35,664 nt of DNA from a virus (taxonomy: Duplodnaviria > Heunggongvirae > Uroviricota > Caudoviricetes): the IMG/VR virus record IMGVR_UViG_3300045988_119994; one strand, 5' to 3'. Of the stretch, positions 6,583 to 9,464 are shown one piece after another. The first letter of the stretch is position 1, and every line of letters starts with the position of its first letter. A program made the translations under genes and the position numbers. The notes below the pieces were generated by a model. It was not told where the DNA came from and did no database searches. It saw only the letters and a program-made list of their open reading frames with translations.

Positions 6583-7017
6583 ATGTCCGGTAATATCTAT
6601 ACGCTGTACAAATCCCACTGTGAAAATGTTGGAAAGTATCGGGGCATTGAAATCAGTGGGGTAGTGTCATCAGTCGAAATAAGCAAAGTTGAATCAAGGG
6701 CAACATTACTTACTCTTTTGGACCTTGTCTTACATGAGCACCGGAAGAAATTCGGCACTCCCTATAATCAGTTGAATGGGAAAAAGGCTCTGGTTCACCT
6801 TATTCTGATGAAGCATCACTGGATGCCAAAACAGATTAATGAGATGAAATTTGATGAACTTCTTCTTTCAATTCAGGATGAACTCACACTTGATAAAATA
6901 AGCGTAACCGCCCAGAAATTTTTAGATTATCGAGACTGGAGATCACAAATTCATCACTTTGATGATTTTGACGAAAATGAATGGGATCCTAATTTGTCTG
7001 CACAATATCTAAAGTAA
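6583..7017 (+). CDS. hypothetical protein (immunity-region gene opposing the early-left operon)
   Basis: 144-aa ORF, AGGA SD 7 nt upstream of ATG; AT-richer than flanks; no recognisable motif. Confidence 0.5.
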   Translation: MSGNIYTLYKSHCENVGKYRGIEISGVVSSVEISKVESRATLLTLLDLVLHEHRKKFGTPYNQLNGKKALVHLILMKHHWMPKQINEMKFDELLLSIQDELTLDKISVTAQKFLDYRDWRSQIHHFDDFDENEWDPNLSAQYLK

Positions 7018-7195
7018 CATCCTGTGATAAAACCGTGATTTCCTGATCCAGTTTTTTTAAGGAGTCTATTGTTTCCTGTCGATAAGACAGCACTTCACGA
7101 AGCTGGTTTATAGCTGCCAGCTTCTTTGTCATCCACTCATAAATTTCCTCATCTGTGTAGCCAGGCGCGACGATTTTGGGTTCTGTTTTGTGCAT
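6989..7195 (-). CDS. hypothetical small protein, first gene of the leftward early operon
   Basis: 68-aa ORF from ATG at 7195 with GAGGAG SD; not arginine-rich so not obviously N-like; 3' end overlaps the convergent 6583 ORF by 29 nt. Confidence 0.45.
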   Translation of the reverse strand: MHKTEPKIVAPGYTDEEIYEWMTKKLAAINQLREVLSYRQETIDSLKKLDQEITVLSQDVTLDIVQTN

Positions 7196-7254
7196 TTCAC
7201 ATCTCCTCAAGTTATCAGTTACTTGTTGATGGGGACCAGATTGTTAAAGAGCTA

Positions 7255-7278
7255 AGCGTCCTGTAGGGCGCTTTTTTG
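7255..7278 (+). terminator. candidate rho-independent terminator (plus strand) between the 144-aa gene and cI
   Basis: 7-bp stem (AGCGTCC / GGGCGCT, one G-U), TGTA loop, then TTTTTTGTT. Confidence 0.45.
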
Positions 7279-7443
7279 TTGCTAACGAATCATCCTGGAC
7301 TTCATATGCCCCAGGCGGCTACTTCGTGGGCGTCCTGCCTGTTCGTTTTTGACATTTACTGACTGCTTACGACACATGCACCGTGTTGCAACCAGATTTT
7401 GTTGTAATCCTGTAGTTGGTCTGGAACAAAAGATAAAATTAAA

Positions 7444-7480
7444 TTGCGAGATATGCAAGTGATATTTGCGAGATATGCAA
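7444..7480. promoter_or_regulatory. oL-like operators: two identical 15-bp sites TTGCGAGATATGCAA, 22 bp centre to centre
   Basis: Sites at 7444-7458 and 7466-7480; TTGC-N7-GCAA inverted half-sites; same motif recurs in the cI-cro intergenic region. Confidence 0.6.
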
Positions 7481-7488
7481 ATTTATAG

Positions 7489-7514
7489 GTAATAAAAAGC
7501 CACCTTTCGGTGGC
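7489..7514 (-). terminator. rho-independent terminator downstream of cI
   Basis: Minus-strand hairpin GCCACC-GAAA-GGTGGC (7499-7514) followed by TTTTTATT. Confidence 0.55.
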
Positions 7515-7534
7515 CGATGGATGGGATATTGAGG

Positions 7535-8227
7535 TTAATTATGTCTCTTAAGGGTTTGCGACTGACTGATTAAGACCTTTCCAAAGACCATGAATCGGTG
7601 TTCGTTTTCGCTAGTAATTCCCCATTCACGGTAAATCTGGTTATCAGAAATCACCAGCAGTTTGTCAGGAATCATTTGAAGTCTTTTAACGTATATTTTG
7701 TCATCAAAACCAAAGACATATATACCATCACCATCAAACTGATTGATGCTGACATCAACGAAGATGAGATCTCCTGGCTCAATGGTTGGACACATACTGT
7801 CCCCACGAACGTTGATAACTTTGATGTGATTGGCTGGTCGTCCGCCGAACATTGATACAGCATTATCAGTTCTGTATTCGATGGCATGAATCACATCAAT
7901 GACATCACCGCCCTGGATAAGGCCATTTCCCGCACTGGCACTGATATCCAGCATTTCAATACGGAACACATCCTTCACCTGCGCAACATCCTCATTATTA
8001 CTGTTTTTATATACAGTATTACTTTTGTGGGCAGAGGTAAAGAGATCAGCAATATCAACACCTAAGCTCTTGGCAATATTACTCAGTGTTTGTTCGGTAA
8101 ATTGTTTTTGCTTACCCGTTTCTAAGCGCGAGATGTTCGCCGCATCTACTCCTATCGCTTCAGCGAGATCGGCGATTTTCATGTTCTTCGCTTGGCGAAG
8201 TTGTCTGACTCGGTTTCCTATGTTCAT
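7535..8227 (-). CDS. cI: CI-type repressor (N-terminal HTH, C-terminal peptidase S24 / LexA-like autocleavage domain); CohE-like
   Basis: 230-aa ORF; HTH in MKIADLAEAIGVDAANISRLETGK; C-terminal GDSMCPTIEPGDLIFVD and KRL motifs typical of S24; divergent from cro; weak SD. Confidence 0.9.
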   Translation of the reverse strand: MNIGNRVRQLRQAKNMKIADLAEAIGVDAANISRLETGKQKQFTEQTLSNIAKSLGVDIADLFTSAHKSNTVYKNSNNEDVAQVKDVFRIEMLDISASAGNGLIQGGDVIDVIHAIEYRTDNAVSMFGGRPANHIKVINVRGDSMCPTIEPGDLIFVDVSINQFDGDGIYVFGFDDKIYVKRLQMIPDKLLVISDNQIYREWGITSENEHRFMVFGKVLISQSQTLKRHN

Positions 8228-8247
8228 GCGTTTATTACATTTCTTTA

Positions 8248-8310
8248 TTGCGTGATAAGCAAATCAACTTGCGCAAAATAATTGCGTGAAATAACATGCA
8301 TAACGCGCAA
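8248..8310. promoter_or_regulatory. oR-like operator region (strong site TTGCGTGATAAGCAA at 8248-8262; palindrome TTGCGCAA at 8269-8276; weaker site at 8296-8310)
   Basis: Same TTGCG-N5-TGCAA family as oL; lies between divergent cI and cro. Confidence 0.55.
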
Positions 8311-8324
8311 TATTTGGAGGGCGT

Positions 8325-8585
8325 ATGCAATCACCATTACGAAATGTGCGTAAGGCGCATGGTTTCACTTTGCAGCATGTTGCTGCGGGTGTTCAAGTCA
8401 ATCCAGCGACGTTGAGTCGTATTGAGAGGCTGGAGCAGATTCCATCTATCGAGCTTGCAGAACGTTTAGCCAATTTTTTTAAGGGTGAAGTCAGCGAAAT
8501 GCAGATTCTTTATCCGGCACGTTTTCAATCTAGCCAAAACCAGAATGGGTTTAAACCACAGGAACAGGAGGTGAACCGTGGGTAA
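8325..8585 (+). CDS. cro: Cro-like HTH regulator
   Basis: 86-aa ORF divergent from cI; GGAGG SD; HTH in FTLQHVAAGVQVNPATLSRIERLE. Confidence 0.85.
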   Translation: MQSPLRNVRKAHGFTLQHVAAGVQVNPATLSRIERLEQIPSIELAERLANFFKGEVSEMQILYPARFQSSQNQNGFKPQEQEVNRG

Positions 8586-9129
8586 GCATCACTGGAAAGT
8601 AGAAAAACAGCCTGAGTGGTACGTGAAAGCTGTCAGAAAAACTATCGCAGCGTTGCCGGGGGGGTACGCTGAAGCTGCTGACTGGCTGGATGTAACAGAG
8701 AACGCATTATTTAACCGCCTTCGTGCCGATGGCGATCAGATTTTCCCGCTGGGATGGGCAATGGTTTTGCAACGTGCTGGTGGAACTCACTTCATTGCTG
8801 ACGCTGTGGCGCAGTCTGCAAATGGCGTCTTTGTGTCTCTTCCTGATGTCGAGGATGTGGACAACGCCGATATCAACCAACGCCTGCTGGAGGTCATTGA
8901 ACAGATCGGCAGTTATTCAAAACAGATTCGTTCAGCAATTGAAGACGGTGTAGTGGAACCGCATGAGAAGACAGCAATTAACGACGAGCTGTACCTCTCA
9001 ATTTCGAAGCTGCAGGAGCATGCAGCACTGGTCTACAAAATCTTTTGCGTTTCAGAAAGTAGTGACGCCCGCGAGTGTGCAGCTCCGGGCGCCGTGGCGT
9101 GTCGTGACTGTGGAGAAACTAACGCATGA
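8578..9129 (+). CDS. early regulatory protein, YmfL-like
   Basis: 183-aa ORF with GTG start overlapping cro stop, AGGAGG SD; synteny with e14 ymfL as recalled; no motif verified. Confidence 0.6.
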
Positions 9130-9464
9130 ACAGTTTAACAACACACTACCGTCGCTCGCAACTGATTGCGCTTCCTGTACCGGGTGGAAAAGCGAAGGTG
9201 GAGTATTGCTATGCAGTAAATGTACCAGGTGACAGGGAAATTGTAACCCACAGCTTTGCTGAGTGGGCTGTGGGTGATTTCAACCGGCAGAAGGAGACAG
9301 TCCTTTGCGACAAGTTAACCGCTGGTTCAAAGATCACTACGGAGTGCCCGTCAGAGTCATTCGTTGGGAGCCGGAAACACAACGAGTTATCTACCTCCGC
9401 GAAGGCTATGAGCATGAGTGCTTCAGCCCGCTCGAACAGTTTCGTCGTAAATTCAGGGAAATAG
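9126..9464 (+). CDS. ymfM: YmfM-like protein (candidate SOS-associated division inhibitor)
   Basis: 112-aa ORF, ATG overlapping upstream stop (ATGA); size and position match e14 ymfM as recalled; an alternative-frame ORF (9305-9484) overlaps its 3' half. Confidence 0.5.

Follow-up and report, generated by a model that had tools for sequence, protein, structure and literature searches.

Candidate operators of an SfII/mEp460-type CI/Cro immunity region in a lambdoid phage sequence

The operators of phage lambda are 17 bp long and are arranged as OL1-3 and OR1-3 (left and right operators); the middle operator lies at -42 from the maintenance promoter pRM, and the cI mRNA is leaderless. In phage 434, the sites read ACAA-N6-TTGT, and their central bases are not contacted. 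Repressor sites can also lie downstream of a promoter: gal OI is placed at +53.5, and OD of TP901-1 lies inside the cro-like mor gene. Here we analyzed the immunity region in a 35,664-nt Caudoviricetes sequence, IMG/VR record IMGVR_UViG_3300045988_119994, the whole stretch of which is called the window below. Palindromes of 15 bp are repeated on both sides of its cI gene. Judged by comparison with related phages, they very probably (probability about 0.85) serve as the operators of an SfII/mEp460-type lambdoid CI/Cro immunity region.

The locus resembles lambda in its divergent cI and cro genes, in the operator clusters on both sides of cI that lie over pL, pR and pRM, in the S24 self-cleavage domain of the repressor, in an apparently weaker cI-proximal site and in a cI mRNA from pRM that is predicted to be leaderless. 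It differs from lambda in that the operators are 15 bp long, the left cluster has two sites, OR2 is a half-site at about -49 and a candidate operator lies inside cro. Cro belongs to the HTH_3 (helix-turn-helix) family instead of having the lambda Cro fold, and the distance between OL and OR is about 0.8 kb. The lambda-type oL/oR layout claimed in the initial annotation of this DNA therefore held for the two clusters around cI, but not for a full set of sites in either cluster.

Phages 434 and P22 likewise have an HTH_3-type repressor and Cro, and operators with conserved outer 4-5 bp and variable central bases, whereas the half-site sequence, site length and spacings differ from those seen here. 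Resemblance to 434 at the sequence level is marginal. Among solved repressor-type structures, the 434-derived domain 1sq8 was closest to the N-terminal domain of CI (E 4e-4), and a ClgR regulator was a slightly better match. SfV, SfIV and e14 (YmfK-YmfT) have in common with the window the backbone, the ymfL-/ymfM-like and early-left genes, and the layout of cI, cro and two operator clusters, and SfIV also has the leader RNA element of pL described below. These elements are, however, heteroimmune: their CI aligns with that of the window in the protease domain only, and their operators are of the TGTAC/GGTACA type. The e14 element of K-12, brought up as a characterized homolog by the annotation of ymfL, is of the SfV/SfIV immunity type and was thus kept only as a heteroimmune contrast. 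Literature searches found no described operators of SfII, mEp460, ST64B or SfV. The site map given here is new for an immunity type without an operator description in the literature searched; the region itself is an ordinary lambdoid one.

Palindromic sites on both sides of cI

Five elements had been listed in the initial annotation, and each was found again at the same position. To the left of cI, TTGCGAGATATGCAA occurs in two identical copies, the promoter-proximal OL1 (7444-7458) and the distal OL2 (7466-7480), 22 bp apart from start to start. Between cI and cro lie the cI-proximal OR3, TTGCGTGATAAGCAA (8248-8262), and the cro-proximal OR1, ATGCATAACGCGCAA (8296-8310). The 8-bp palindrome TTGCGCAA stands between them (8269-8276, plus strand) and contains the pR -35 hexamer TTGCGC (8269-8274) and a good OR2 half-site.

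To score the sites, relatives were gathered from a species-representative genome set and from IMG/VR and reduced to 30 non-redundant right-operator regions. They come from Escherichia, Shigella, Citrobacter, Klebsiella, Trabulsiella, Buttiauxella and Pseudescherichia, and their CI proteins are 66-100% identical to that of the window. A symmetric weight matrix was trained on 104 sites from 27 relatives, with the window's own operator subtype excluded. When the 35.6-kb window was scanned with this matrix, the four full sites ranked 1-4 at 16-19 bits: OL1 and OL2 scored 19.3 bits each, OR1 17.9 bits and OR3 16.3 bits. The fifth match, at 8346-8360 in cro, scored 7.8 bits, and the best match elsewhere in the window 7.6 bits. 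The expected number of matches of at least 16 bits per window was 0.055 with a zero-order background and 0.07 with mononucleotide shuffles; at 14 bits or more, 0.31 matches were expected from dinucleotide shuffles versus 0.13 from the exact zero-order calculation. The four sites are far above chance under either background calculation, and all of them lie in the two non-coding stretches flanking cI.

A search with the looser pattern TTGC-N7-GCAA, which the initial annotation had suggested, gave four exact matches in the window versus 1.24 expected, three of them at this locus, and this count is not decisive by itself. The site had been written there as TTGCG-N5-TGCAA. Its positions were correct, but the consensus of the family, taken from the 30 relatives, reads TTGCG-N5-CGCAA, with an A/T-rich and weakly constrained center. 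We also observed that outside 7444-8360 no sequence in the 35.6 kb scores between 8 and 16 bits, with about 1.5 (zero-order) to 3 (dinucleotide shuffles) expected. The empty range may reflect weak avoidance of stray operators, or chance.

The sites were found at fixed distances from the cI start codon across the 30 relatives. OR3 is present at -35 to -21 from the cI ATG and OR1 at -83 to -69 in all 30, the latter always with a GCAT end, and the sequence TTGCGCAAGT between them is invariant. The spacings of OR1-OR2 (27 bp) and OR2-OR3 (21 bp) were each kept in 30 of 30. On the left, the OL pair follows directly after the cI terminator; two sites were found in 27 of the 30 relatives, with OL2 and OL1 22-24 bp apart, and the site at the position equivalent to OL1 usually has no mismatches to TTGCG-N5-CGCAA. 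In phages of about 90% identity, substitutions within the sites hit the center and not the TTGC/GCAA ends. The same was seen for OL2 in close relatives, where the ends are retained in 78 of 80 and the center is variable.

The initial annotation held that these sites define the specificity of immunity, and comparison with the heteroimmune phage SfIV agreed with this claim. SfIV has both flanks in common with the window (the left-flank homology reaches about position 7347, and the right flank is ymfL), but its CI and Cro are unrelated. At the operator positions, SfIV has TGTAC/GGTACA palindromes and no TTGCG-N5-CGCAA sites. The sites are thus constant among relatives with 66-100% identical CI and replaced in SfIV; the operators co-vary with the repressor, and the motif travels with this CI/Cro pair, as an immunity determinant should. 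The recognition helices of the two proteins were compared by eye by positioning each on the HTH_3 profile. Residues 27-36 of CI (VDAANISRLE) and 25-34 of Cro (VNPATLSRIE) follow the pattern V-(D/N)-x-A-x-(I/L)-S-R-(L/I)-E, with V, A, S, R and E in common, which is consistent with CI and Cro reading the same sites.

Predicted promoters and proposed logic of the switch

Promoters were assigned from conservation in the relatives, and the spacer is 17 nt in all three. On the minus strand, the right half of OL1 forms the pL -35 element TTGCAT (7458-7453), followed by a predicted -10 element TATCTT (7435-7430) and a predicted leftward start at about 7423. Of 27 relatives, 16 have TATCTT and nearly all have TAnnnT. 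In most relatives a conserved leader RNA element starts a few nucleotides past the predicted pL start, and its position gives independent support for pL. On the plus strand, the pR -35 hexamer TTGCGC is kept in 30 of 30 relatives; the predicted pR -10 element is TAACAT (8292-8297), with TAACAT, TAATAT or TAAAAT in 29 of 30, and the predicted start at about 8303-8305 falls in the center of OR1. OR1 overlaps the end of the -10 element and the predicted start, its outer A being also part of the -10 hexamer.

The predicted pRM reads in the opposite direction. Its -35 element TTGCTT (8262-8257, minus strand) is half of OR3, its -10 element is TGTAAT (8239-8234), and its predicted +1, A8227, is the A of the cI ATG. 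TGTAAT is invariant in the 30 relatives and ends 6 nt before the cI ATG (-12 to -7) in 28 of 30, with no Shine-Dalgarno (SD) sequence. Because the -10 element ends so close to the start codon, the cI mRNA from pRM is predicted to be leaderless. The weak SD of cI and the lambda-like maintenance promoter that had been proposed for this gene agree well with this arrangement.

At each promoter an operator half-site serves as the -35 element, and one operator is centered at -28 and another at about -49/-50. OL1 is centered at -28 and OL2 at about -50 from pL; OR3 is centered at -28 from pRM and at -49 from pR. The divergent pR and pRM are arranged back to back, 6 bp separating their -35 hexamers, and OR2 and OR3 swap the -28 and -49 roles between them. 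The right operators (OR3, OR1 and the half-site) thus lie over the divergent promoters and the left cluster over the leftward promoter.

The palindrome TTGCGCAA pointed out in the initial annotation is invariant in 30 of 30 relatives, but it is not part of a full operator by the matrix. The 15-mers that contain it scored -2.8 and -7.1 bits, the latter for the OR2 register 8269-8283, in which the TTGCGCAA part is good and the distal half is degenerate. In the relatives, OR2 has a median of 5.8 bits and reaches at least 8 bits in 12 of 30. Another sequence nearby, TTGCGTGAAATAACA (8282-8296), was rejected as an operator of the family; it scored -5.1 bits and is conserved only within the E. coli/Citrobacter subtype. 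In OR3, every one of the 30 relatives has A or T in place of G at position 5 of the half that forms the pRM -35 element, while the pL -35 halves mostly keep G at this position. This suggests that OR3 is kept sub-optimal, fitting a site that would be filled last for negative autoregulation.

From this map, we propose the following switch. The 15-bp palindrome would presumably be bound by dimers of the HTH_3-type CI and, in lytic growth, by the HTH_3-type Cro. A cooperatively bound OL1/OL2 pair would shut pL, with OL1 covering the -35 element and the spacer. At pR, OR1 would block the -10/+1 segment, and the OR2 half-site would probably block the -35 element. pRM would yield the leaderless cI mRNA until CI fills OR3 over the -35 element and spacer. 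OR3 is probably a low-affinity site for negative autoregulation, because it is sub-consensus at a conserved position in every relative, and OR1 and OL would be filled before it. The candidate site in cro would probably strengthen the repression of pR, either through binding that is cooperative or looped or by acting as a roadblock. On induction, RecA-stimulated self-cleavage of CI at Ala99-Gly100 would relieve repression, and Cro would then bind the same sites and shut pRM. We infer the identity of the binder, the order of occupancy and the start points from the sequences.

Several points weigh against assigning the sites to a lambda-type switch. A sigma-70 consensus scan of 7000-8700 gave no promoter at threshold, and each of the three promoters agrees with the consensus at 7-8 of 12 positions, a moderate match. 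Instead of three full operators, the right cluster of the window has OR2 as a half-site. This site is centered at about -49 from the predicted pRM start and not near -42, and lambda-type activation of pRM by CI is for this reason not part of our proposal. The OR3-OR2 spacing is that of OL1-OL2, and repression of pRM could accordingly be as easy as that of pL. No significant alignment of the CI N-terminal domain with Cro was obtained by BLASTP. The matrix scores of 16-19 bits are not affinities, and the searchable literature held no binding, footprint or transcription-start data for the SfII/mEp460 immunity type.

Some of these points fit the main alternative mechanism, in which the same sites serve a different logic: CI would bind OR3 and OR2 cooperatively and shut pR and pRM together without activating its own synthesis, and the lysogen would be maintained by plain negative autoregulation or from another promoter. 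The architecture of pL and pRM is alike, each with an operator half as its -35 element, a second site 21-24 bp upstream and spacings that hold in all 30 relatives; the center of OR2 is about -49 from pRM instead of -42, and the 27-bp spacing of OR1 and OR2 is out of helical phase. We nevertheless regard this logic as rather unlikely. In most relatives, as in the window, OR2 is weak or half-degenerate, the sub-consensus position 5 of OR3 in all 30 relatives fits the last place in the order of filling, and cI showed no other conserved promoter.

The proposed role of CI itself could also be questioned, because cro and the CP76-family gene are linked to the sites as well as cI. That Cro alone, or some other regulator of phage or host origin such as the CII/YmfL-family protein, binds the sites in place of CI is nonetheless improbable: OL stands directly after the cI terminator and moves with cI, SfIV keeps a ymfL-family gene while its operators change together with CI and Cro, and palindromic 15-mers suit HTH dimers, with recognition-helix residues common to CI and Cro. 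We know of no E. coli host regulator with the consensus TTGCG-N5-CGCAA. It could further be argued that the repeats are mere promoter -35 elements (TTGCxx) or leftovers of a duplication without operator function, as three TTGC half-sites coincide with predicted -35 hexamers, and OL1/OL2 form a 22-bp direct repeat of which one relative lost a copy by deletion. This explanation is hardly credible given that the partner half CGCAA is conserved at the exact 15-bp register and that the ends are conserved while the centers vary. Moreover, OR1 (+1), OL2 (-50) and the site in cro are not at any -35 position, yet they keep the full palindrome.

With CI/Cro operators as the preferred reading, the operator and promoter map and the likely leaderless cI give a basis for predicting homo- and heteroimmunity among these prophages and for engineering induction-proof or hyper-inducible derivatives, and an aid to interpreting natural variation in the induction of Stx phages or SfII. 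The locus is a further worked example of lambda logic re-implemented with different geometry, and it leaves the paradigm unchanged.

A candidate operator within cro and variable operator centers

The matrix match in cro, GTGCGTAAGGCGCAT (8346-8360), covers codons 8-12 and was absent from the initial annotation. We call this candidate fourth right-hand operator O-cro. Its distance to OR1 is 50 bp, a value kept in 25 of 30 relatives, and it sits at about +49 of pR. In relatives it reads TTGCG-N5-CGCAA, with a median score of 16.3 bits and at least 8 bits in 28 of 30, although O-cro sites were left out of the training of the matrix; the site in the window is weaker (7.8 bits). It resembles gal OI and TP901-1 OD as a repressor site in the first gene downstream of the repressed promoter. 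It differs from them in that looping or a roadblock is hypothetical here and that the window has a weaker site than its relatives.

Codon usage over O-cro was then compared with that in the rest of cro and cI. The protein motif over the site is (L/V)R(K)(S/A)(H/Q). Within O-cro, Leu is encoded by TTG in 25 of 25 cases (14% in the rest of cro and cI; Fisher P 6e-21), Ser by TCG in 23 of 23 (9%; P 1e-23) and Ala by GCG in 5 of 5 (17%; P 1e-4), P values that overstate independence since the sequences are phylogenetically related. Arg is always encoded by CGN in O-cro, while about one third of the Arg codons elsewhere are AGR. Wobble positions inside the center of the operator vary freely. This is the pattern of a constraint at the DNA level, and it makes O-cro a candidate auxiliary operator at about +49 of pR.

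Variation among nearly identical prophages was observed in 80 IMG/VR loci (L015-L094) with essentially identical CI. The DNA of cI and cro is almost invariant among them (nucleotide diversity, pi, 0-0.01), as is the cI terminator, which showed no change at all. The stretch 7450-7493, which comprises the OL2 center, the OL1-OL2 spacer and the part that reaches to the cI terminator, is highly polymorphic, as are three variable positions (8321-8323) in the 4-nt gap between the SD sequence and the ATG of cro. Common polymorphisms occupy 15 of 52 positions in the variable stretches versus 24 of 1,229 in the backbone. In total, 52 distinct OL variants were found among the 80 loci, and 8-9 of them inside one identical 1,229-bp backbone haplotype. 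Despite this hypervariability, the sites retain their TTGC/GCAA ends. A clade of the Salmonella type showed milder variability, in the OL1 and OR1 centers. Diversifying selection that acts on how strongly the sites repress or on the translation of Cro could account for the hypervariability, as could a mutational hot spot. In one locus (L036) only one OL site remains. Precisely one of the two 22-bp OL repeats is missing, probably through slippage or recombination between the directly repeated copies.

These features can be joined in a speculative variant of the switch, which we consider doubtful as a whole: a symmetric promoter pair without self-activation by CI, an obligatory O-cro, and diversifying selection on the operator centers and the cro spacer. 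OR2 and OR3 would each occlude one -35 element (center -28) and sit at -49 of the other promoter, O-cro and OR3 would bracket pR at +49 and -49 as a small repression loop, and the non-contacted centers together with the SD-ATG spacer of cro would tune the set-point of induction among otherwise identical prophages.

Gene neighborhood, distribution and leader RNA

The cI gene (7535-8227, minus strand) codes for a repressor of 230 amino acids with an N-terminal HTH_3 domain (PF01381, 1.2e-11) and a C-terminal Peptidase_S24 domain (PF00717, 6e-19), and the protein is 100% identical to CI of SfII. The residues for self-cleavage are in place, namely Ala99-Gly100, Ser144 (in GDSM) and Lys181 (in VKRL), a set consistent with that expected for a RecA-sensitive repressor. 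The divergent cro gene (8325-8585, plus strand) codes for a small HTH protein of 86 amino acids (HTH_3, PF01381, 5.1e-10), annotated as Cro in SfII, and is preceded by the SD sequence GGAGG (8316-8320, plus strand). Between the cI stop codon and OL2 is an intrinsic terminator for cI, formed by GGCCACCGAAAGGTGGC and a T run after it (7498-7515, minus strand). The gene after cro belongs to the CII/CP76 (YmfL) family. It was observed as a YmfL-like gene at 8578-9129 and is followed by a 112-amino-acid open reading frame (9126-9464) with the length and position of e14 YmfM, a cell division inhibitor according to the e14 annotation. The backbone downstream of cro is thus e14/SfV-like despite the different immunity type.

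Region 7284-8700 is 99.5% identical to Shigella phage SfII, in which the matching region is annotated with cI, cro and cII and a putative rho-independent terminator is marked after cI. The immunity module is also present in some Stx2a-converting phages, in addition to SfII, which is a serotype-converting phage. Region 7200-8700 is 100% identical to chromosomal prophages of several E. coli genomes. The module is common: when these 1.5 kb, which hold cI and cro together with the OL flank and the beginning of ymfL, were used as a query, 2,642 of 5,426 complete E. coli genomes matched at least part of it; 1,037 genomes matched over at least 80% of its length, and 335 records showed a match at 99% identity or more. 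The immunity region of coliphage mEp460 has about 91% DNA identity to the window, and its CI is a close relative. This phage is among 26 temperate lambdoid phages reported to be lysogenic and inducible with mitomycin C, and the mEp collection was picked to cover different immunity groups (PMC9836094).

Just downstream of the predicted pL, a structured RNA-like element of about 62-70 nt was found on the minus strand (7351-7282). It is made up of CGAACAGGCAGGACGCCCACGAAGTAGCCGCC, a stem-loop and GGATGATTCG, and RNAalifold gave four base pairs with compensatory changes. The element is present in SfII, in the heteroimmune SfIV and in most relatives, and absent from e14 and mEp460-type phages. No Rfam family reached the gathering threshold anywhere in the window, and for 6900-8700 there was also no match with E up to 1. 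A covariance model found a single copy only (96 bits), with no second copy downstream of pR that would make a put-like pair. The element may be a cis-acting leader of the early-left operon in phages without N, a reasonable guess because SfII, SfV and SfIV have been reported to lack an N gene (PMC3851460). The sRNA-17 of the mEp460 prophage (PMC7719688) was dropped as a candidate for this RNA, as five strings from the pL leader and the OL/OR sites were absent from the supplements of that paper.

Two mosaic junctions are located in the same stretch. Identity to SfII begins at about 7284, and the left-flank homology to SfIV ends at about 7347; the immunity module has its left boundary there. A terminator-like hairpin on the plus strand (7254-7273) faces the leftward pL transcript.

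The deposited cI annotations of mEp460, Stx2a_1447 and 1720a-02 begin 15 codons late (648 versus 693 bp; equivalent window positions 8183-8227), and such a late start would remove helix 1 of the HTH. The longer reading is almost certainly correct in these three phages, because the upstream ATG and the N-terminal codons are conserved.

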